Positions 15,908 through 62,061 of a stretch of DNA of 64,000 nt are shown piece after piece; the first letter of the stretch is position 1, and each line of letters begins with the position of its first letter. The stretch comes from Escherichia phage EC6. The position numbers and the translations under genes were made by a program. The DNA lies in sequence record JX560968. One strand, given 5' to 3'. Under the pieces are notes generated by a model. The model saw only the letters and a list, made by a program, of their open reading frames with translations. It made no database searches and was not told the DNA's origin.

Positions 15908-17533
15908 ATGGCAGATTACAAATTGAGTCAATTAAACTCAATCGACACAATTCGTTCAGAAGACCTATTGCACATCAGAGTTAAGAAAAGACCTGAAATG
16001 TTGGGTGACGAAGACCGTAGAATGACCTATCAAGACTTCTTAGCTTCTTTCAAACTAGAAAGGTTTGTTCAGATTGCTGGGAGCACTATGACGGGGGATT
16101 TAGGTATTGTCAAGTTACTTTACGGTGGTAAGGTAGTATTTGACCCTACAGATTCTTCTGAGATTACTCTTGGGGATATTTTAAAGACTTTTAAAATCAA
16201 CTCAAATGGGCTTAAACTCACTATTGCAGATGCCACAAGGTCAGCAACTGTTTATCATACTTTGAATAAACCAAGTCCTAATGAACTTGGCATGAGAACT
16301 AATGAAGAGAATGATGCAAGATATTCAAGGCTTGCTGTTACAAATAACTTCAGTATTAGGCAAGCAATTGTAACTGATGGTGAGCAGTTAACTCTTAAGA
16401 AGGCAACCAATACAGGTGCTTCATATATTCAAGGTAGAGATGCTAATAACCAGCAAACTTGGTATGTTGGACAGGGAAATGCAAACAGTACTAATGTTTA
16501 TTTGTACAATCATGCTACTGGTGCAATGTTAACCCTTGATGCAACAGCAGCATTTAACAAGTCACTTAGAATCGTTGGTCAAGTTCAACCTTCGGATTTC
16601 TCTAACTTAGATGCTAGATACTTCACTCAGACAGTCGCTAATCAGAGATTTGCACAGTTAGCTGGCAATAATACTTTTACAGGTGCTAATACATTTAATA
16701 ACTATATCAGTGTGAACTCTAATGCTGCTGCTATCGTGCTAAAAAATAAGTCTGCTAATGAGTCTTTGTACATCCTAGCAAAAGATGTTGAAAACAATAA
16801 TCTGTGGTTTATTGGTAAAGGTAGTGCAAATGACAATATCACATTTTATGATTACAAGGGCAATACTTCTATTGTATTAAACTCGTCTGGTGCTGCATTC
16901 AGCAAGACTGTAAAAATCACTGGTCAAGTCCAACCTTCAGATTGGACTAACATTGACTCTAGATATATTCCGGCAGCTACTTTGAGCAATCTTGCTAAAA
17001 TTAATGTAGCTAACACATTTACCTCCCAGCAAATTATCCAAGCAAATGGTGAAGCTATTAGGCTAAAAAACTCTTCTGAGAACTCACCATTGTATATCAG
17101 AGCACAGGACAACACTGGTGCTTATAGGTGGTATGTAGGTAATGGCTCGGGGGGTGATGATGTCACCATCCGCAATCACAAGACAGATTGTGAGGTTATC
17201 CTATCTAGTGTCGTTGCTATTAATAAAACATTAAGCATCACTGGTCAAGTTAAACCCTCAGATTTCTCTAACTTAGATGCTAGATATTACACGCAATCTA
17301 CCGCAAACTCTAGGTATATGCTTGCTTACTCTTCTGGCAGTGGTACAGAGGTGGGTGAGAGTGATGGTATTGTTTGGAATGCTAAAACTGGTCTGTATAA
17401 TGTGTATGATAAATCTGGTGGCGCAACACAGCTAGTCTACCATATGTATCAGGGTGCAAGTTCTACACCATCTGCACAGTTTAAGTTTATCTACAGGAAT
17501 GGTGGTAGTTTTTTACAGGACAGCACGAGATAG
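15908..17533 (+). CDS. tail fiber protein with three internal ~110-aa repeats
   Basis: Each repeat ends ITGQV(Q/K)PSD(F/W)(S/T)N(L/I)D(A/S)RY; near-identical DNA copies at 16576-16620 and 17243-17287. Confidence 0.55.
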   Translation: MADYKLSQLNSIDTIRSEDLLHIRVKKRPEMLGDEDRRMTYQDFLASFKLERFVQIAGSTMTGDLGIVKLLYGGKVVFDPTDSSEITLGDILKTFKINSNGLKLTIADATRSATVYHTLNKPSPNELGMRTNEENDARYSRLAVTNNFSIRQAIVTDGEQLTLKKATNTGASYIQGRDANNQQTWYVGQGNANSTNVYLYNHATGAMLTLDATAAFNKSLRIVGQVQPSDFSNLDARYFTQTVANQRFAQLAGNNTFTGANTFNNYISVNSNAAAIVLKNKSANESLYILAKDVENNNLWFIGKGSANDNITFYDYKGNTSIVLNSSGAAFSKTVKITGQVQPSDWTNIDSRYIPAATLSNLAKINVANTFTSQQIIQANGEAIRLKNSSENSPLYIRAQDNTGAYRWYVGNGSGGDDVTIRNHKTDCEVILSSVVAINKTLSITGQVKPSDFSNLDARYYTQSTANSRYMLAYSSGSGTEVGESDGIVWNAKTGLYNVYDKSGGATQLVYHMYQGASSTPSAQFKFIYRNGGSFLQDSTR

Positions 17534-29629: not shown

Positions 29630-29893
29630 ATGAATATCGATGTAGAAAAGATGCTTGAAGAGAAAGGTGTTGATGAAGCATTCTTAATCAATGCCGTAGA
29701 AAGCATGGCTATGATTCTTCGTGGTAATAACTACACAGAACAGTTTATGCCTGCAAGCTATAACTTGCCTGAAGACAAGTCTGATAACGGTGCTTTTGCA
29801 GAACAGGTTAATATGATGTTGACAGACACTACACTTGCTCTGGCATCTATTGCGGTTGGTGTTGATGCACTTGCTGAGTTCAGTTTTTTATGA
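29630..29893 (+). CDS. hypothetical protein
   Basis: 87-aa ORF. Confidence 0.3.
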   Translation: MNIDVEKMLEEKGVDEAFLINAVESMAMILRGNNYTEQFMPASYNLPEDKSDNGAFAEQVNMMLTDTTLALASIAVGVDALAEFSFL

Positions 29894-29894
29894 A

Positions 29895-30440
29895 ATGCAA
29901 AAGAATGACTATATCAGGATGTCAGACGAAGATAAGGAACTGTTGCTGACTAAGGACACTGATTTCATTATTGATACACTTATCTCATCAACAAGTGCTG
30001 TTATGGCTGTTCTTGAGAAGCGTATGGAAGAGAAACTTTCACGATATGAAAAACTTGATTGGGGCGTAGAAGAATTAAACCCACGAATCAAAGAGATTAT
30101 CCAGCAAACTAAAGAGTCTTTGGAAGAAGCTGTTGAAAATGACTCTGTAGCTGACATTGAACCACTTCAGGTGAAAGTTGCACTGATGATTCCAGCTATC
30201 TCTACGATGATGAATATCGTTGCACTAATCCAACTGTCACAGATGATGGGTGTGAGTATTGAGTTCATTGAGGAAATGACTGGTGGCGTTAGTATGCAAG
30301 CAATCAATGATGTTTTGGTGAACATTGGTGCTTCAATCATTGAAGAGAAACTACGCATTAACTTCGGTGATGATTTTGTGAAGCAAATCTCAGCTATGGC
30401 TGAAAAGAGTCTGCTGAGCAACTGCACTAAGTCTTTATAA
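29895..30440 (+). CDS. hypothetical protein
   Basis: ATG at 29895 overlaps upstream stop (ATGA-type coupling); track ORF 29835 starts further upstream. Confidence 0.3.
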   Translation: MQKNDYIRMSDEDKELLLTKDTDFIIDTLISSTSAVMAVLEKRMEEKLSRYEKLDWGVEELNPRIKEIIQQTKESLEEAVENDSVADIEPLQVKVALMIPAISTMMNIVALIQLSQMMGVSIEFIEEMTGGVSMQAINDVLVNIGASIIEEKLRINFGDDFVKQISAMAEKSLLSNCTKSL

Positions 30441-31444: not shown

Positions 31445-33422
31445 AGGTCGTAAATTGAAAGAGGCTGGTCAGTTTGTTGGTCATTGCGCATGTCCACGTT
31501 GTGGTTCATCAGATGCTGGTTCAATCTACCATCATGACGATGATTCTTATTCAATGACTTGCTTTAGCTGTAACAAAGGTTTCCCAGAGTGGGATTTTGA
31601 TAAAGGACAAATCGTGAGCACTTATTCTACTGGTTCAGATAATAAAAACCGTACTTTTCGTGGAATGGATTTAGACGATGTAAAAGAAAACCTAGAAGCG
31701 ATGGACTTGAAAGACAGGAAGATTCCTGCAAAAGTTCTTGAGCGTTTGGGTATTAAGGTTGACATTGACAGTGATGGTGAAATTGACGCGCATTTCTACC
31801 CAACTTACAAACGCAATGAAGATGGCAAGCTAGAGCATGTTGGCTACCGTGTTCGTCACCGTTACCCAGAAGACCATCCAAAAGAGCACCTACGAGGTAA
31901 GTTAAAAGACTTTTCTGGTGGTGTTGGAGACATTAAAGGTGAACTGGCAATGTTCGGTTCATGGATTGCTCCAGAAGGTGGTAACCGTCTATTCATCTGG
32001 GAAGGTGAGATGGAATGTGCGACAGCAATCTATATGACTTCTCTTGCGATTAAGGACAAATCTCGTCGTAAGAATTACTGTCATGTATCTGTTCCGTCAG
32101 GTGCAAACATCAAGTCTATCAAAGATAACTATCAGTACATCACATCATTTGATGAAATTTACTTGTGCTTTGATAACGATGAAGCAGGTGCTAAAGCTAC
32201 CAAAGAGGCTGCTGGTATCTTACCTATTGAGAAAGTTCGTTTATTCCAGTATCCAGAGGGTGTAAAAGACCTTAACGAATGGTGGACAAAGTTCTATAAA
32301 GAGAAAGACACAGTTCTGGAAGGATTTAAGCAGCGTATCTACAACGCACCTCGTTATTGCCCTGCTGGTATCAAGAACTTTGCAGATGGTTTTGAGGCAA
32401 TGAAGAACCGTGGTCAGATTCCATTGATTCCTTTCCCAGAATCTTTCGGGGATTTGAACAGACTGACTTATGGTGGTTACGGTTTAGGCGAGATTACGAC
32501 TATCGCAGCACCATCTTCAGTAGGTAAGTCAGCTTACACTCGTGAGATGATTTATTCAGCTTGGAAAGAAACTGATTATAATATCGGTGTAATTCCTGTA
32601 GAAGATACCTATGAAGAGTTGATGGAGATGCTCTGTGCAATCCACCTAAGCAAGCAGATTTCTGAGATTCCTTATGACGAACGTGATTGGGATGAATTGA
32701 AGGAAGCACACGCAGAGCTATCTAAAGGTCGTCGTATCCATATCGTTGACCATCAAGGGGCAATTGACCAAGATAACCTGCTGGAGTTTGTTGACTATCT
32801 TGTTAATAGCTTAGACTGTAAGATTATTATTCTTGACCCTATTACGTTGGCTCTGTCACGTTCTGATACGGATGAAGAGGAAGTTTTGTCTGAGCTATTG
32901 CGTCGTTGCAAACGCTACCAGTATGCGCAGGTAAACGTATGTCACGTTCGTAAGAGTGCAGGTGGTCAGAAAGCCAACTCTGAAGGTGGAGATATCTCTG
33001 AAGAGGATATTAAGGGTTCTGGTGCATACTTCCAGATTTCTATGAACAACATTCTGTTAATGCGTAACAAGGTTGACCCAGACCCTGTTAAGAAAAACTT
33101 GACAAAAATCAAGTTAACTAAGTGTCGTCGTCATGGTAAGTCAACAGGTATTGCTGGCCATACTTGGTACAATCCAGATACAGGACGTCTCATCAAAGCT
33201 TCTGGATGTGGTGTTGACATTGATGGTGCAGCAGAAAATATTCGGCAACAGTTTGGTATTGGTGAAGCTGAAGACCATTACGATGACTCTTTACCTCATT
33301 ATGAGGATGAAGTGTTTGACCGTGAGACTGGTGAAGTCTATACTGAAGAACAGCGTCAAAGCTCAACGATTCCACCTGTATTAATTGAGGATGCAGATGA
33401 CTGCCCGTTTGAAACTGAGTGA
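31437..33422 (+). CDS. DNA primase-helicase (T7 gp4-like)
   Basis: Zinc-ribbon CPRCGSSD...CFSCN; TOPRIM FIWEGEMECA and LCFDNDEAG; helicase Walker A APSSVGKSAYT; start taken at ATG 31437. Confidence 0.7.
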   Translation: MSKGRKLKEAGQFVGHCACPRCGSSDAGSIYHHDDDSYSMTCFSCNKGFPEWDFDKGQIVSTYSTGSDNKNRTFRGMDLDDVKENLEAMDLKDRKIPAKVLERLGIKVDIDSDGEIDAHFYPTYKRNEDGKLEHVGYRVRHRYPEDHPKEHLRGKLKDFSGGVGDIKGELAMFGSWIAPEGGNRLFIWEGEMECATAIYMTSLAIKDKSRRKNYCHVSVPSGANIKSIKDNYQYITSFDEIYLCFDNDEAGAKATKEAAGILPIEKVRLFQYPEGVKDLNEWWTKFYKEKDTVLEGFKQRIYNAPRYCPAGIKNFADGFEAMKNRGQIPLIPFPESFGDLNRLTYGGYGLGEITTIAAPSSVGKSAYTREMIYSAWKETDYNIGVIPVEDTYEELMEMLCAIHLSKQISEIPYDERDWDELKEAHAELSKGRRIHIVDHQGAIDQDNLLEFVDYLVNSLDCKIIILDPITLALSRSDTDEEEVLSELLRRCKRYQYAQVNVCHVRKSAGGQKANSEGGDISEEDIKGSGAYFQISMNNILLMRNKVDPDPVKKNLTKIKLTKCRRHGKSTGIAGHTWYNPDTGRLIKASGCGVDIDGAAENIRQQFGIGEAEDHYDDSLPHYEDEVFDRETGEVYTEEQRQSSTIPPVLIEDADDCPFETE

Positions 33423-33491
33423 TAGTTATAAAAGAGAGGGGTTCATACCCTTCTTTGAAGAAAAAGTTTAAATGAATTTCAGGAAGAGTGT

Positions 33492-33520
33492 TTGACAAAG
33501 GTTGATAGGTTCTATAGAAT
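33492..33520 (+). promoter_or_regulatory. sigma70-like promoter TTGACA-N17-TAGAAT
   Basis: TTGACA 33492-33497, TAGAAT 33515-33520. Confidence 0.5.
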
Positions 33521-33673
33521 GCTCTACATGAAATGTGATGGAGGCGTTGAGGTAGAAGAAAAGTTCCATCACAGTATAATAACAGTCACTATTACTATAC
33601 CTCGACATAATATTGGTTGGCTGTTTATAATTAAAGAAAATGTGTTTGAATATCAAGTATATCGGAGAATATC

Positions 33674-33823
33674 ATGAAACACTCTAAAGCATTTGAAAAA
33701 GTTTTTGGGGATTCCTTAAAAGCCACTGCTGGTAAACCAGCAAAATACTATGAAGAGAAGCGTGTAAGAACTGGAAAAACTGCACGTAAAGCAGCTTCTA
33801 AAGATAAGCACAACTTCCAGTAA
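33674..33823 (+). CDS. small basic protein (49 aa), not in ORF track
   Basis: ATG with GGAG RBS 9 nt upstream; MKHSKAFEKVFGDSLKATAGKPAKYYEEKRVRTGKTARKAASKDKHNFQ. Confidence 0.3.
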   Translation: MKHSKAFEKVFGDSLKATAGKPAKYYEEKRVRTGKTARKAASKDKHNFQ

Positions 33824-33895: not shown

Positions 33896-34753
33896 ATGTC
33901 TAAAGTTGTTAAAATGAAAGCTCCGGTAGAGAAGTACAATGGTACTGAGCGTCAAACTCTGCGTTACCTGTTGAAAGATGTTTGGTTTTATTACCTGAAC
34001 ACTTCACCACGTCCGGCAAAAGGTAAATCCATTGATAAGAAATTCCCAGGAAAAGATTGTAACTACAGTGTTTCAATTCTGGCAGAAGATGGTAACAAAC
34101 TATTTAAAGAGTTTACTAAGTCTAAGAAAAACCCAGAAGGTTGGGATAAAGTTACTACTGAAGCAGTTGATGCAGATGACTTCGAAGAGAAGTTTGGTTG
34201 CAAACCACCATTTGAAGCAGACACTTACCACATCTTGAAAGTAAGTCGTGCAGCAGCTTATAAAGATGGTGCTGTGTGGACAGCTAAACAGTCATTCCCT
34301 GTGATGCTGATTGAAGAAGTAAATGGTAAGCGTGTAGCTGTTAAACAGCCGATGAAGAAAATCAAAGCTCAAGCATCTGACAAACATGAAGATGACAAGA
34401 ACTATGATGTAATTCATCCAGATATTGCAGTTGGTAACGGTTCTTTTGGTAGTGTGATTCTTTCTACTCACTTCTACACTTTTGAGAACAATGTTCTGAC
34501 AAAACCTATTCAGGAACAGTTTATCATTGATACTCTTGTACCTTACACTGGTGGTAACGGTGCTAATGGCGAACCTGAACTGGATGAAGACGAACTGGCT
34601 ATGCTTGGTCTTGATGGTGTTGAAGATAACGGTGAAATCACTGAAGAAGACGCAAAAGACCACAAACCTTCGAATGATTCTGATGATGGTGACGATGAAG
34701 ACTTGCCAGACCCAGATGACGAAGAAGATGAAGACTTCGATACAGAAGACTAA
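33896..34753 (+). CDS. single-stranded DNA-binding protein (putative; acidic C-terminal tail)
   Basis: 285 aa; C-terminus DDGDDEDLPDPDDEEDEDFDTED typical of phage SSBs; strong promoter and RBS; among replication genes. Confidence 0.4.
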   Translation: MSKVVKMKAPVEKYNGTERQTLRYLLKDVWFYYLNTSPRPAKGKSIDKKFPGKDCNYSVSILAEDGNKLFKEFTKSKKNPEGWDKVTTEAVDADDFEEKFGCKPPFEADTYHILKVSRAAAYKDGAVWTAKQSFPVMLIEEVNGKRVAVKQPMKKIKAQASDKHEDDKNYDVIHPDIAVGNGSFGSVILSTHFYTFENNVLTKPIQEQFIIDTLVPYTGGNGANGEPELDEDELAMLGLDGVEDNGEITEEDAKDHKPSNDSDDGDDEDLPDPDDEEDEDFDTED

Positions 34754-34770
34754 TCTCTAAAAGTTACTTT

Positions 34771-34800
34771 AAAGCCCTGTACTTAGTATGGGGCTTTTTC
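34771..34800 (+). terminator. rho-independent terminator
   Basis: AAAGCCC...GGGGCTTT hairpin then TTTTC. Confidence 0.5.
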
Positions 34801-34815
34801 ATATGGAGAGTCACA

Positions 34816-35863
34816 ATGGAGAAGTACACATTAAAAAAACCTTCCCGATTCAGTTACACATGTTTTTATCGACTCTGACAGTATTGCCTATAAAGGGGCT
34901 TGTGTAGTTGAGAAAGCAAAATATAAATACGTCAATAAACTCACAGCAGAAGAGTCTGAACCATTTGATAATGCAAAAGATGCTGCAAGATGGTTAGCAG
35001 ACCAGAGAATCCTTGTGGAAGAGCTTGGCCTAGCATTTGATGAAGATGAATGGGAAAGACAGACTTGGAAAGAAGCTAAGAGTGAAAAAGAAGCTATCAT
35101 GGCTACTCAACAGGTGCTTCAGGAATGGCTTAAGGTTGTTGGTAAAGAAAGAACTTGGGTAGGTTATTTAACAGAGAAAGGTGTGCATAAACATAAAGAC
35201 ATTAAAGGTCTTGAGCACCAATATCAAGGTAACCGCAAAGATGCTGTCACACCAACACACTTAGTTGCTTGTCGTGAATATCTTCTGTCAAGACCAGAGT
35301 TCAAACTAATTCTTGATGGATTTGAAGCTGACTCTATCGTGATTGCTAAAGCTGAAAAGATGGGTAAAAAGGCTGCCTTAATGAGTATTGATAAAGACCT
35401 TCGACAAGCTGAAGGTACTTACTGTATTGATATGACTTATGAAAAGTCGCCTTTGATTTTCATTGCTGATAACAACGTTGGTGAAATTTGGGATTGTCCA
35501 ATAAAATCGACACCAAAAGCTAAGAAGACAGTTGGGGTAGGTTTTAAATTTCTTTGCTATCAAGCCGTGGCTGGTGATAATGCGGATAATTATTTCGGTT
35601 TAAAGGGTGTTGGTAAGGTTACTATAATGAAAGCCCTTGAAGGTAAAACCACTTACAAAGAGTGTCTTGATGCAATTTATGAGCTTTATGCTAAGAAAGA
35701 GTCATACACTTATGTCTCGTGGGATGGTCAAACAATTACCAGAACACCTTTAGAGTTAATGCAGCAACACTTTTTCTTAGCTTATCAGGAAAGAAACAAG
35801 AAAGATGATTTCACTTTTGATAAGTATGGGTGGACACCAAATGTTAACTCAACAAACTCTTAA
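34816..35863 (+). CDS. 5'-3' exonuclease / flap endonuclease (RNase H-like), reading frame interrupted at A7 run 34833-34839
   Basis: ATG 34816 gives MEKYTLKK then stop; +1 frame continues ...VFIDSDSIAYKGAC (FEN N-terminal motif) into track ORF 35015..35863 with H3TH motif AGDNADNYFGLKGVGKVT. Confidence 0.6.
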
Positions 35864-36332
35864 AGAATACCTACACTATGACCCCGAAACAGGGGTCTTT
35901 ACTTGGATTAAGAAGTCTGCTAAGCACACAAAAATTGGTTCTGTTGCAGGTACAAACTTAAAAGGTTACATCCGAATTTACTTGTTTGGTAAAGGGTACT
36001 ATGCGCATTCATTAGCTGTCCTATATATGGATGGTTATCTTCCTGAGTGTGTTGACCACAAGAACCATGTAACTCTAGACAATCGTTGGTTAAATCTGAG
36101 GGCATGTACACTATCAGAGAACCAATGCAATAGGTTGCTTAACAAAAACAATAAATCCGGTGTCAAAGGTGTGTACTACAACAAGAGGTATGGTAAGTGG
36201 TCTACACAGATAACTTTTCAGAAGAGAGTTTACTTCTTCGGCAACTATGACACGATTGAGGAAGCAGCAGAAGTTGTGAATAGAGAACGTCAACGTTTAC
36301 ACAAAGAGTTTGCTAATAAAGGTGATGAATGA
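35841..36332 (+). CDS. free-standing HNH homing endonuclease with AP2 DNA-binding domain
   Basis: HNH core VDHKNHVTLDNRWLNLRACTLSENQCN; AP2-like SGVKGVYYNKRYGKWSTQITFQKRVYFFGNYDTIEEAA. Confidence 0.6.
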   Translation: MLTQQTLKEYLHYDPETGVFTWIKKSAKHTKIGSVAGTNLKGYIRIYLFGKGYYAHSLAVLYMDGYLPECVDHKNHVTLDNRWLNLRACTLSENQCNRLLNKNNKSGVKGVYYNKRYGKWSTQITFQKRVYFFGNYDTIEEAAEVVNRERQRLHKEFANKGDE

Positions 36333-36830
36333 GAAAAATTAAAGGTTTTGGTAATTGCCCTGAGTATGGACATTGGATTTCACTTTGTGGGGAAATTGAC
36401 CCAGCAAAGCATTTTGGTTTTGTCTACCTAGTGTACTGCAAAAAGACTGGGCAGTACTATTTGGGTAAGAAACAGTTTAACAGTGTGACCAAAAGAAAAG
36501 TTGCTGGGAAGACTCGGAAGAAGGTAGTCACTAAGGAGAGTGATTGGATGACTTATGAGACTTCTTCTGAGTATATTAAAAAACGATATTGAGAGCTTTG
36601 GAAAAGAATTTTTTGACTTTTACATTATTCAAACCTACTACACAAAAGGTGGCCTAGTCTATGGTGAAGCAAACCTTCAACATAAATTCGATGTAATGAC
36701 AAAAAGGATTGACTCTAAGCTCAGACTCTTCTACAATGCCAACATTGCAGCAATTAAGTTTATCACTAAAGAAACTTATGAAGATGCTGAAAAAAGAATC
36801 CATAAGGTAATGAAAGCAAATTGTGCTTGA
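36329..36830 (+). CDS. GIY-YIG-like endonuclease, two overlapping ORFs (36329..36592 and 36555..36830) separated by a frame change at A6 run 36578-36583
   Basis: N-terminal GFVYLVYCKKTGQYYLGKK resembles GIY-(10)-YIG motif; second ORF continues in +1 frame. Confidence 0.35.
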
Positions 36831-45857: not shown

Positions 45858-46342
45858 ATGAATTACATGGAGATTAGACCATTTGACACAGCTAATGGTG
45901 AAGGGGTTCGTGTAAGCCTCTTCGTAGCTGGCTGCAAACATCACTGTGAAGGCTGCTTTAACAGGGAGTCTTGGAAATTTAATGCTGGTAAAGAGTTTAC
46001 TTATGCAAACCTCTATGGCATCATCAAGTTAATGGATGATAATGCTATCAGTGGGCTGTCAATACTTGGTGGGGAGCCTCTGGATGATAGAAACATTCAA
46101 GACGTTACCAATATATGTAAACGTATTAAAACTGTTTACCCAGAAAAATCTATATGGCTTTGGACAGGTTTTCAGTTACACGAAAAATCCACCTCGATGT
46201 GATGAAATATGTTGACGTGGTGATTGATGGTAAGTATGATTCTTCTAAACCAACAGTTAAACCTTATCGTGGTTCTGATAACCAAAACCTCTGGAGAAAA
46301 GAGTATGGATGGCAAGGTGATTGTCAATGGCGAGCAGAATGA
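45858..46342 (+). CDS. nrdG: anaerobic ribonucleotide reductase activating protein (radical SAM), frame interrupted at A5 run 46184-46188
   Basis: N-terminal half has CKHHCEGC (CxxxCxxC) and IWLWTGFQLHE; -1 frame continues KIHLDVMKYVDVVIDGKYD...RGSDNQNLW, matching NrdG C-terminus. Confidence 0.65.
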
Positions 46343-51322: not shown

Positions 51323-53690
51323 ATGCGCATGGTAAACGACCACGCAGAAGTGATTAAGAGTTCAACTTCTTTAGAGACGTCTCAGGCACAGATTACAATG
51401 ACACCTGAAATGTTCAGCCTTTTGAGTTCTGGTGTATATACCTTTAAAGAAAGGGCAGTCATTCGTGAACTGTCATGTAACGCAGTAGATGCTCAGAAAG
51501 AAGCTGGAAAAGAGAACATCCCTTTCCATGTGCATTTACCTACTCGTTTTGAGCCTTACTTTGAAGTTCGTGATTTTGGAACTGGATTGACTCATGATAA
51601 AGTTATGAGTTTGTATCTAAACTACGGGGCTTCTACGAAGAATGACTCTAATGACTACATTGGTGCAATGGGTATCGGCTCAAAATCTCCATTTGCAATT
51701 GCTCAGTCATTCACAGTATCTAGCTATGTTGATGGTGTTGTTAATAAGTACTCTGTTTATCTTGAGAATGGTATCCCTCAAGTAACTAAGCTGACTACTA
51801 ACCCAATAAAAGAACCTAATGGTTTAGCTGTACGTGTAGCAGTTGCTGACCATCGTATCTCAAAGTTCTTTGAAGAGGCTGGTCACGTATACTCATACTT
51901 TGCTGTAAAACCAGAAAGTAATATCGAGTATGACGATATATTAGCAGATATGAACGTCATTGCCCGTGAAGAAGGTGTTTATGATGCCATGATTCATAAG
52001 CAAAGCTGGCGTTCTAGTGGTAACAGGACAGAGTTTAATGTGGTGATGGGTAATATTGCCTATCCAGTGAACATGGAAGCATTACTTGGTGATGATTTCT
52101 TCAAAGTATTGCCAGAATTTTTCCGTAGGAGCGTAGACCTTGTAAACATCTACATGCCTATTGGTTCAGTTGCTATTGCAGCTTCTCGTGAAGCATTGCA
52201 GATGAATGACACGACAAAAAACTGTTATCATTGAGGCTACTAAAAAGATAACTGAAGCAATTACAAAGGATGTTATCAAGAAAGTTAACAGTCAACCTAC
52301 ACTTATGGATGCTGCACAGGCTTATGCTGAGTTACGTTTGAACTCACGAGAGATGTTTAATGCTGTGTGTCCAAAGCTAGAGTGGGGTGGTGTTAAGCTT
52401 GATTCTCTGGAAGAAGAATTACTAAACATTCGTCGTGGAATTATCTACGCAGAAGACGGCTCAGTTATCTATGAACGTGATGGTAAAGGTAATATTAAGG
52501 TTGATAGGAACGGAAACAATATCCCTAAAGTAGATTATCTTTATAATCCAGTTGCTTATGTTAAGTTCAACTCTTTAGAAAGTAAGATTCGTGCAACAGC
52601 ACTTTCCTACACTCAAGAGGCAAGTATGTTCAATATCTTTGGCGCAATGCGTAAAAGTCAAATTGAACAGTTTTTGTTTGTTATAAACGACCGTCGCAAT
52701 AAAAATGGTACTGAGAAGACTGTAGGACGCAATCAGATTCTGCGTGGTGCATGTCGAGACTATGCCAGTGAGTCTAGTCTGTTTCACAGATACAACGGTA
52801 TCGTCTTTGTATTCTCGACTGAAAAAGAGTTAGACAACCTAATCAATCTGCACAAACTTGATAAAAGCTTGTTAAAGATTGTGAAGATGTCTGATAAGGA
52901 ACATCATTATCAGCGTAAAGAAGCTGTAAGAGGTGTTGTAAAACTTTGGAAAGCTGTTCCAGCAGAAGGTGTAGCTTCATACAAAGAGGTGTCAGAGGAC
53001 TTAGATACGATTGAAGAACCTCAGCTTTACATTAAGGCAATTGGTGACACAGTTGATGGTGAATGTTTTTGCTCATCTCCAGAAGATGTAGCTAAGTCAG
53101 TTGCTAATGTTACAGGTAAGACAGTCTATGTTTTCCGAAAAGCAAATTGGAAAAAGATACCAGAAGATTGGATTGAAGTAGATGAGAAACTCTTGAACGA
53201 CAGCTTAACTGATGTTCACTGGATTAACCATAACAGATATATGACGCGTATCTATATGAATGGTGTCCTTGACCTTACAAGCAGTTGGATTATTGCCAGA
53301 AACTTTACATTCAATAACAGGAAGATTTCTCGTGGTTATTGCTATTCACGGGATACAAACAAAACTATCTTCCTAGAAGGAAATGAAGAGGCTGTAGAGG
53401 CAATGTTCGGTAAAATCCAATACGTTGCTGCACCGTTTGCATACACTTATACTATTAGTAGATTGCAAACTTTGAAAGAATGTCTTGACAACGATACAAA
53501 GCTGTACAAGAAAATCAAGAAAGCTGGTGACCGTATGGTCATTAAGGTGACAAACTACCTTTCAAAAAGAAAACAAGAAAACTTCTTGCTTTCTCATTTA
53601 GATTGGAATAAAGTGTCACCCATCGAAGTGAGTAAGTTCTTGGGCTTTGATGTGAAGTGTGTTCCAGAAGGGACTACAATTTACGATTAA
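51323..53690 (+). CDS. rIIA: rIIA-like protein with GHKL ATPase N-terminal domain; two overlapping ORFs (51323..52234, 52206..53690) joined by a frame change at A6 run 52216-52221
   Basis: Bergerat-fold motifs ELSCNAVDA, RDFGTGL, GAMGIGSKS; combined about 797 aa; followed by rIIB-like gene as in T4. Confidence 0.5.
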
Positions 53691-59411: not shown

Positions 59412-59592
59412 TTCAGGATTGTGCAGGTAGAGTTCTGTAGAGAAATCTGTAGAGAAAATTTTGAACTCCAAAGAGAAAATTCATTTTCAAACTGTGCAGG
59501 TAATCTCCAAAGAGCTTTTTCATTTTCAAAACGTGCAGATAAAAATCAGGTCGGGCAAGAAAAATCATTTTAGAATTGTGCAGGTAGGTGGG
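59404..59592 (+). repeat. array of four ~26-nt direct repeats (consensus TCATTTTCAAAAnTGTGCAGGTA)
   Basis: Copies at 59404-59430, 59477-59503, 59516-59543, 59560-59590 with 40-70 nt spacing; extra AGAGAAA sub-repeats. Confidence 0.6.
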
Positions 59593-59763
59593 TGTAGGTG
59601 GGGATGTCGCCATTTCTCACAAGGCTACCACATCTGGAAATAAAAGTCAACAGAAAAATTTGTAGCGGATTGAAAAATAATTCTTGATTGTAGTTCTGTT
59701 TTGTGGTAGTCGCGTGCGCCCGTTTCATTACAGTTTTTTGCAAAAATATTTTTAAAATTTTTC

Positions 59764-61641: not shown

Positions 61642-62046
61642 ATGGCTATCAATAAACGCGAATTATCAATTTTAAAAGCACGTTTGACCGTTAACCGGAT
61701 TAATGTTATTACGTCATCAGCACCAGACGAGACACTGCAAAACATTATTGGGAAGATTCAAAGTGTTATCTTAGACGTTGAAAGCGTAAAAAACTCACTG
61801 ACTGACGTTGCAGCAGGTATCACCTTAAACGGTGCACAATATGAAATGGCTGACATGTTAGGCAAATCTAAGGTAATGAATAAAGAGCTTGATTTGAAAA
61901 TGTTCAGATTCGCCGTAAAAGTATGGTTATCCGTCGATTATGACGCAAATTTTGCAATCGCTGACTTTTTCGCAACATGGTTACAACGTAATTTGACAAA
62001 TCACGATTTTCGTGATATCTGCGATGCAATTTATGCAGAACTTTAA
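61642..62046 (+). CDS. early hypothetical protein
   Basis: 134 aa. Confidence 0.4.
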   Translation: MAINKRELSILKARLTVNRINVITSSAPDETLQNIIGKIQSVILDVESVKNSLTDVAAGITLNGAQYEMADMLGKSKVMNKELDLKMFRFAVKVWLSVDYDANFAIADFFATWLQRNLTNHDFRDICDAIYAEL

Positions 62047-62061
62047 AAAAAAAAACTTTTG

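Follow-up and report, generated by a model that had tools for sequence, protein, structure and literature searches.

Does Escherichia phage EC6 carry a broken exonuclease gene, a recoded one, or an ordinary one seen through an error in its deposited sequence? The question arises within the window, by which we mean the whole 64,000-nt stretch of record JX560968 analyzed here. An earlier note, made from the letters alone, had described a FEN/RNase H-like gene interrupted at a run of seven adenines. A real break would point either to a Felix O1-like phage that lives without its flap endonuclease or to a replication gene with a recoding site not known before.

We began from the sequence as deposited. 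On the plus strand, a Shine-Dalgarno-like GGAGAG (34805-34810; CATATGGAGAGTCACAATGG), conserved in relatives, lies 5 nt upstream of an ATG at 34816. The codons from this ATG read ATG GAG AAG TAC ACA TTA AAA AAA CCT TCC. The frame spans 20 codons (product MEKYTLKKPSRFSYTCFYRL) and ends at TGA 34876-34878. The A7 run occupies 34833-34839 and is followed by CC at 34840/34841. In the +1 frame, TAA 34832-34834 is followed by KNLPDSVTHVFIDSDSIAYKGAC..., and the exonuclease body then continues without a stop for 342 codons up to TAA 35861-35863 (34835-35863, plus strand). As these stops set the open limits of the two frames, any switch between them must occur between 34835 and 34875. The earliest ATG, GTG, or TTG in the +1 frame after its upstream TAA is GTG 35015, beyond the N-terminal acidic motif. 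The earlier note had read these features correctly: the ATG frame stops after 20 codons, no canonical start codon separates the upstream stop from the FEN motif, and the +1 frame runs to 35863 with an H3TH motif. Runs of seven or more A/T were depleted across the window (6 overlapping matches, where dinucleotide shuffles predict 42 +/- 8), as would be expected if selection disfavoured long homopolymers in this densely coding phage genome. The A7 run is no statistical anomaly per se; the informative fact is the frame break.

Homology searches placed the gene in a familiar setting. A 1.5-kb query matched 254 phage records at 80-97% identity, nearly all from phages of the Felix O1 type, with Escherichia, Salmonella, Shigella, and Citrobacter as hosts; the window therefore belongs to a Felixounavirus, one of the Felix O1-like myoviruses. 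In this group the locus corresponds to the conserved "gene 6 exodeoxyribonuclease" (346-348 aa; 348 in Felix O1), and the +1-frame translation was 99% identical to the vB_EcoM-VpaE1 exodeoxyribonuclease cluster. Orthologous coding sequences are annotated as 'exodeoxyribonuclease' or '5'-3' exonuclease' in Felix O1, pinkbiff, CRP22, and UAB_Phi87.

Assignment to the FEN superfamily was facilitated by profile and structure comparisons. The protein with its frame repaired matched PHROG_107 'exonuclease' over residues 2-345 (E 4.4e-66). Pfam searches returned PF01367 (H3TH/SAM fold) at 21.4 bits, under the cut-off of 40, and no match to the N-terminal model; several homologs carry precomputed hits to PF02739 or PF01367. 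A profile built from 30 homologs matched the Taq 5' nuclease (1.9e-7), mycobacterial FenA, Pol I, and T5 exonuclease. The H3TH-like stretch YQAVAGDNADNYFGLKGVGKVT aligned with the H3TH of the Taq polymerase 5' nuclease (Taq residues 180-214), and the FEAD and DKDL motifs aligned with Taq GYEADD and DKDL. Residues D13, D15, E164, D166, D186, D188, D248, and D251 were invariant in a 30-sequence alignment with identities down to 36%. An AlphaFold2 model was obtained with a mean pLDDT of 92.5 and a pTM of 0.85. When this model was compared to the PDB using Foldseek, the top 25 matches were all FEN-superfamily nucleases (TM about 0.4-0.57), including plastid Exo1, T5 FEN, FenA, T4 RNase H, and ExoIX (E 3e-8 to 1e-3); Rad2/XPG was also matched. 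Judged by its profile matches, its putative metal-binding acidic residues, and its modelled PIN-like fold with an H3TH, the protein belongs to the FEN / 5'-3' exonuclease superfamily and is predicted to be a structure-specific 5' nuclease. The FEN/RNase H-like label given earlier from the letters alone is thus well founded, agreeing with PHROG_107, the homolog profile, the invariant acidic residues, and the AlphaFold model.

The invariant residues bear directly on where translation begins. The gene could be intact but shorter, with translation beginning at GTG 35015 or from a near-cognate start, for example ATC 34868. GTG 35015 does open the longest canonical-start ORF in the FEN frame (35015-35863, plus strand; 282 aa). 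A start there would cost the protein about 60 residues, which include the metal-binding pair as well as the modelled fold's first beta-strand and first helix. Lacking the invariant N-terminal Asp pair (D13/D15, +1-frame numbering), the 282-aa product would not be expected to be an active nuclease. All 29 of 29 aligned homologs, with identities down to 36%, begin upstream of this pair. No Shine-Dalgarno sequence precedes ATC 34868 or GTG 35015, and either start would ignore the strong Shine-Dalgarno and ATG at 34805-34818 that are conserved in all relatives. We therefore give a downstream start a negligible probability.

Comparison with orthologs, which the earlier note had named as a check, located the lesion. 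Felix O1, pinkbiff, CRP22, and UAB_Phi87 each contain an unbroken ORF from the equivalent of ATG 34816, with a single C after the A-run. This common ATG lies 62 nt after an acidic 285-aa gene, and the ORF it opens measures 1041 nt (346 aa) in UAB_Phi87 and 1047 nt (348 aa) in each of the other three. Most relatives read TTA ACA AAA CTT (Leu-Thr-Lys-Leu). A sub-lineage consisting of UAB_Phi87, LF110P4, and three IMG/VR contigs shares with the window the TCACA before the ATG and reads TTA AAA AAA CTT, an in-frame A7 plus one C encoding Lys-Lys (MEKYTLKKLPDS). The window alone reads TTA AAA AAA CCT T. Among the 31 relative loci fetched, 21 contained ACAAAAC, 6 AAAAAAC, and 4 ACAAAGC, with AAAAAACC unique to the window; the six A7C loci represent at most five distinct sequences, as L021 and L022 overlap in UAB_Phi87. 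Deletion of one C in silico restored a 1047-nt, 348-aa ORF.

The lesion is thus most simply described, from the aligned sequences, as one extra C beside a native A7: one of the two C's at 34840-34841 would be the frame-shifting base. A change in run length from A6 to A7 was considered and rejected, given that the nearest relatives carry A7 in frame. The earlier placement of the interruption at the A7 run was accurate to within one or two bases, while the altered element is the following C and not the run itself. In the same terms, the 20-aa ORF (34816-34878, plus strand) comprises the true start and first 8 codons of the exonuclease, followed by 12 out-of-frame codons and TGA.

We then asked how widely the extra C occurs. 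Site searches were performed by blastn (word size 11) with 70-nt queries. The extra C was absent among the 60 matches listed of 217 phage records, each of which spanned 69 nt against the 70-nt query, and the best identity among these 60 was 95.7%. A gap-tolerant pattern search found the shorter form, and not the extra C, in 15 of 15 IMG/VR contigs, and the exact A7CC site string had zero matches in GTDB genome contigs and JGI metagenome contigs. Ten contigs encoding an identical upstream 285-aa protein all (10 of 10) carried an intact 346- or 348-aa exonuclease gene. Along 4.9 kb, the window differed from these ten contigs by only two indels, the extra C at 34840 and an A missing near 33460. 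The block that follows had a single 1-nt indel common to the ten comparisons, an extra C at 36584, accompanied by an in-frame 3-nt difference.

This distribution also bears on programmed recoding, in which full-length FEN would be made at lowered dosage from the sequence as it stands. Two routes can be envisaged: a +1 ribosomal frameshift on A-AAA-AAC-C, with the P-site tRNA-Lys re-pairing from AAA to AAC, or slippage of RNA polymerase on the A7 run such that one A is dropped. Either would give a near-native protein, MEKYTLKKLPDS (MEKYTLKK-LPDS) by the ribosomal shift or MEKYTLKNLPDS (MEKYTLKN-LPDS) by loss of one A from the mRNA, and the interval 34835-34875 in which the shift must fall contains the only A7 run of the window. 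Conservation is the rule for genuine recoding sites, yet the two-frame arrangement was found in none of the 60 listed of 217 phage records, none of the 15 IMG/VR contigs, and none of the 10 contigs sharing the upstream gene.

Local features were examined for elements that might drive a frameshift. On A-AAA-AAC, tRNA-Lys could in principle re-pair, either at two of three positions after a +1 shift or completely if it stays inside the run, though not in a specific way. The sole Shine-Dalgarno is the initiation element, 22 nt upstream of the run, and no such element lies at a frameshift-stimulating distance. Downstream structure was rejected as a stimulator, as the 91 nt following the site fold at -16.3 kcal/mol, with no extra stability compared to shuffles (z = -0.78). 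The A-site codon would be CCU, which is not known as a hungry or stop codon. Efficient transcriptional slippage occurs on runs of about 9 or more, and A7 is shorter. Nor was a long conserved A/T run present at this locus, with A7 here and ACAAAA in 21 of the 31 fetched relative loci. Finally, an extra C of this kind recurs in three unrelated genes of the window, which fits an artefact better. Programmed recoding at this site is accordingly very improbable.

To place the FEN lesion in context, the whole window was searched for private indels against two complete relatives, LF110P4 and UAB_Phi87. Nine 1-nt indels were private to the window. All nine lay at A/T homopolymers (runs of 4-7), and seven of them break six conserved genes: FEN, rIIA, nrdG, a GIY-YIG endonuclease, a 266-aa gene, and a homolog of Felix O1 ORF102. 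The signature of the FEN site (extra C after A7, 34840/41, plus strand) was repeated at three others as an extra C after A6, on either strand. In the GIY-YIG/SegE-like homing-endonuclease gene (36329-36830, plus strand), labelled 'NAD synthetase' in many records, the site at 36578-36584 reads TATTAAAAAA[C]GATATT, where brackets mark the extra base at 36584, and the 166-aa gene is split into ORFs of 87 and 91 aa. In rIIA (from 51323, plus strand), the site at 52216-52222 reads GACAAAAAA[C]TGTT, and the extra C at 52222 cuts a 788-aa product to 303 aa. The third lies in the 266-aa gene (from 29630, plus strand), called 'minor tail protein' or hypothetical in relatives, where an extra G precedes T6 at 29883, equivalent to A6 plus C on the minus strand.

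The remaining indels altered run length. The 266-aa gene carries a second private indel, a lost A in an A5 run at 30408. Loss of an A from an A6 run at 46183 cuts the product of nrdG (anaerobic ribonucleotide reductase activase; from 45858, plus strand) from 161 to 114 aa. The Felix O1 ORF102 homolog (33396-33677) has lost an A at 33463, reducing A6 to A5 (33460-33465). Two indels were intergenic: a lost T in a terminator-like tail (T6 to T5, 5980) and an extra A in the spacer between a Shine-Dalgarno and an ATG (A4 to A5, 56205).

For the sites at 36584, 52222, 29883, and 46183, between 214 and 256 phage records matched the 70-nt surroundings; the best of them differed only by the indel base, and none shared the indel. 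The extra C had no counterpart among 224 records at 36584 or among 224 at 52222, nor did the lost A at 46183 among 256. Neither the 87-aa GIY-YIG fragment nor the 303-aa rIIA fragment had an entry in the gene index. Reversal of the indels restored ORFs of 348, 166, 788, 266, and 161 aa, the lengths found in relatives, with the 266-aa ORF requiring both of its reversals. As a control, UAB_Phi87 was compared to LF110P4, and frame splits were confined to ORFs of 83-106 aa; in the window they affected FEN, rIIA, nrdG, the 266-aa gene, and the GIY-YIG gene. Outside a divergent tail-fibre region that contains the site at 17508, the window's remaining A6C and GT6 sites are native in relatives. Four of the five private insertions fell on the 3' edge of one of the 46 A/T runs of six or more in the 64 kb, for which the probability by chance is ~1e-12. 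Aside from these lesions, the proteins of the broken genes were 97-100% identical to intact orthologs.

The same data weigh on whether the insertion is genuine. The isolate or stock might carry a real +1 insertion, produced by slippage or misincorporation beside A7, that leaves a loss-of-function or leaky exonuclease allele for which host Pol I or another nuclease substitutes. The extra base is, after all, present in the sequence as given, and mutations do concentrate at homopolymer edges. A FEN knockout need not be lethal, given that T4 rnh mutants are viable. A further truncated annotation also exists: P0024 of Citrobacter phage BSwM KMM2 is a 190-aa 'hypothetical protein' that is 89% identical to about half of the exonuclease, which suggests another public record with the gene split or truncated, at a different position. 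Genuine mutation would, however, require simultaneous frame breaks in six conserved genes, four of them with the identical 'A-run + C' signature. These breaks were not seen in related genomes (214-256 records at the four other sites and the 60 listed of 217 at FEN). Moreover, the downstream FEN frame remains 99% identical to intact orthologs and shows no decay. We consider a genuine insertion unlikely.

A more elaborate biological account would take A7CC and the three 'A6 + extra C' sites all as real. Full-length proteins would then arise through low-level loss of an A in transcription of the A6-7 tracts or +1 ribosomal slippage on them, as a lineage-specific form of multi-gene recoding or dosage tuning; otherwise, the phage polymerase itself would have to leave an 'add C after an A-run' signature. 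We assign this account only a very slight chance.

Our data instead suggest that a homopolymer-linked error of sequencing or assembly is the best explanation of the FEN frameshift, and we hold this with high confidence. Six genes are broken simultaneously, all at homopolymers and four with one strand-symmetric signature, while their proteins remain 97-100% identical to orthologs; a systematic sequencing or consensus error is therefore indicated. As the FEN break is one of nine private homopolymer indels, it is best regarded as an artefact rather than as a pseudogene or a recoding site. Compared across the available sequences, the FEN indel appears private to one assembly, lies at a homopolymer, and is accompanied by further ORF-breaking indels, the pattern that an assembly artefact would be expected to leave.

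We infer a technical cause for the extra C from its position and uniqueness, the identity of the gene, and the eight further private indels. The real phage most likely has one uninterrupted 348-aa exonuclease ORF from ATG 34816, reading MEKYTLKKLPDSVTHVFIDSDS.... The spurious second C, directly after the native A7, was probably introduced at a homopolymer-sensitive step of sequencing or consensus calling. In the 454 flow order T-A-C-G, C comes after A. A spurious call in the base position or flow following a long, strong A signal would thus yield A(n)C. Indels linked to homopolymers, among them insertions of a single base after a homopolymer, have been documented as a class of error in flow-based sequencing (PMC2323236, PMC3764156), described there as run-length miscalls and same-base 'carry-forward' insertions near a homopolymer.

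Some points stand against an error. A C after A's is not the textbook over-call or 'carry-forward'; classic 454 'carry-forward' was rejected as the exact mechanism, as the inserted base differs from that of the homopolymer. In addition, phages grown in the laboratory may be able to do without rIIA and nrdG, and perhaps without FEN, which would leave room for real mutations. Taking both sides together, the FEN frame break is most likely not a real feature, and the gene an ordinary, known Felixounavirus exonuclease seen through an assembly error. The biological reading, an interrupted gene or possible recoding, is most likely wrong.

These results affect how the record should be used. Felix O1-like phages serve Salmonella typing and phage therapy. 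With at least nine homopolymer-linked consensus errors in the window, an automatic annotation would break up or shorten six genes. Further findings of a 'frameshift' or 'pseudogene' in the window should first be compared to the error sites given here. The longest homopolymer of the window, an A11 run at 62045-62055, is a case in point, as its length is unreliable because of the homopolymer error pattern. This run is intergenic. It begins within the TAA that ends a 134-aa ORF, and a promoter-like pair, TTGACA ... TAAATT, follows about 7 nt downstream. The tract may be UP-element-like; no fetched relative aligned there.

Several further features of the window were noted. The exonuclease gene overlaps at its 3' end with an HNH-type homing-endonuclease gene (175 aa; 35805-36332, plus strand). 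Felix O1 and some relatives carry this HNH gene, and in those that lack it the GIY-YIG gene comes immediately after a 346-aa exonuclease gene; by this comparison, we interpret the difference as a homing-endonuclease presence/absence polymorphism. A terminator and promoter scan of 34500-35100 returned nothing; a hairpin after the upstream gene, with a 12-nt loop, fell outside the limits of the scanner. At 59582-59728 (minus strand), a 111-aa ORF of LF110P4 is split in the window by a 20-nt deletion (GTAGGTGGGGGT...). The surroundings vary and are mostly non-coding; nearby, CTTAAACTAGGAGATTCAA ribosome-binding modules recur.

The protein and its gene were also compared with known systems. T5 D15 FEN, T4 RNase H, and the Pol I 5' nuclease share with the window exonuclease a PIN-like domain, an H3TH, and conserved carboxylates. 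Solved FEN-superfamily structures are only 11-15% identical to it, and relative to T5 FEN its family carries extra inserts at residues about 25-110. The known recoding sites of prfB, Thermus dnaX, and IS elements likewise combine a short upstream ORF, an A tract at the frame junction, and the need for a one-base shift. In contrast to them, the window site has no conservation, stimulatory Shine-Dalgarno, stop codon, or structure, and its run is short.

Homopolymer-associated indel errors of flow-based (454 / Ion Torrent) or nanopore sequencing offer a further parallel (PMC2323236, PMC3764156). The nine private indels, all at A/T runs of 4-7, likewise mix under-calls with single-base edge insertions, on both strands. 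The resemblance is imperfect in that classic homopolymer errors change run length or add the same base, whereas four insertions in the window are a C 3' of an A-run. The last comparison is with the orthologs. Felix O1 gene 6 (NP_944975.1), VpaE1, and UAB_Phi87 Phi87_89 have the same gene position, Shine-Dalgarno, and ATG as the window, which also attains the 1047-nt length of Felix O1 (348 aa) once one C is removed. Most orthologs encode Thr-Lys (ACA AAA) where the lineage of the window has Lys-Lys (AAA AAA), and the window differs from Felixounavirus orthologs only by the extra C at 34840/41 and ordinary substitutions.
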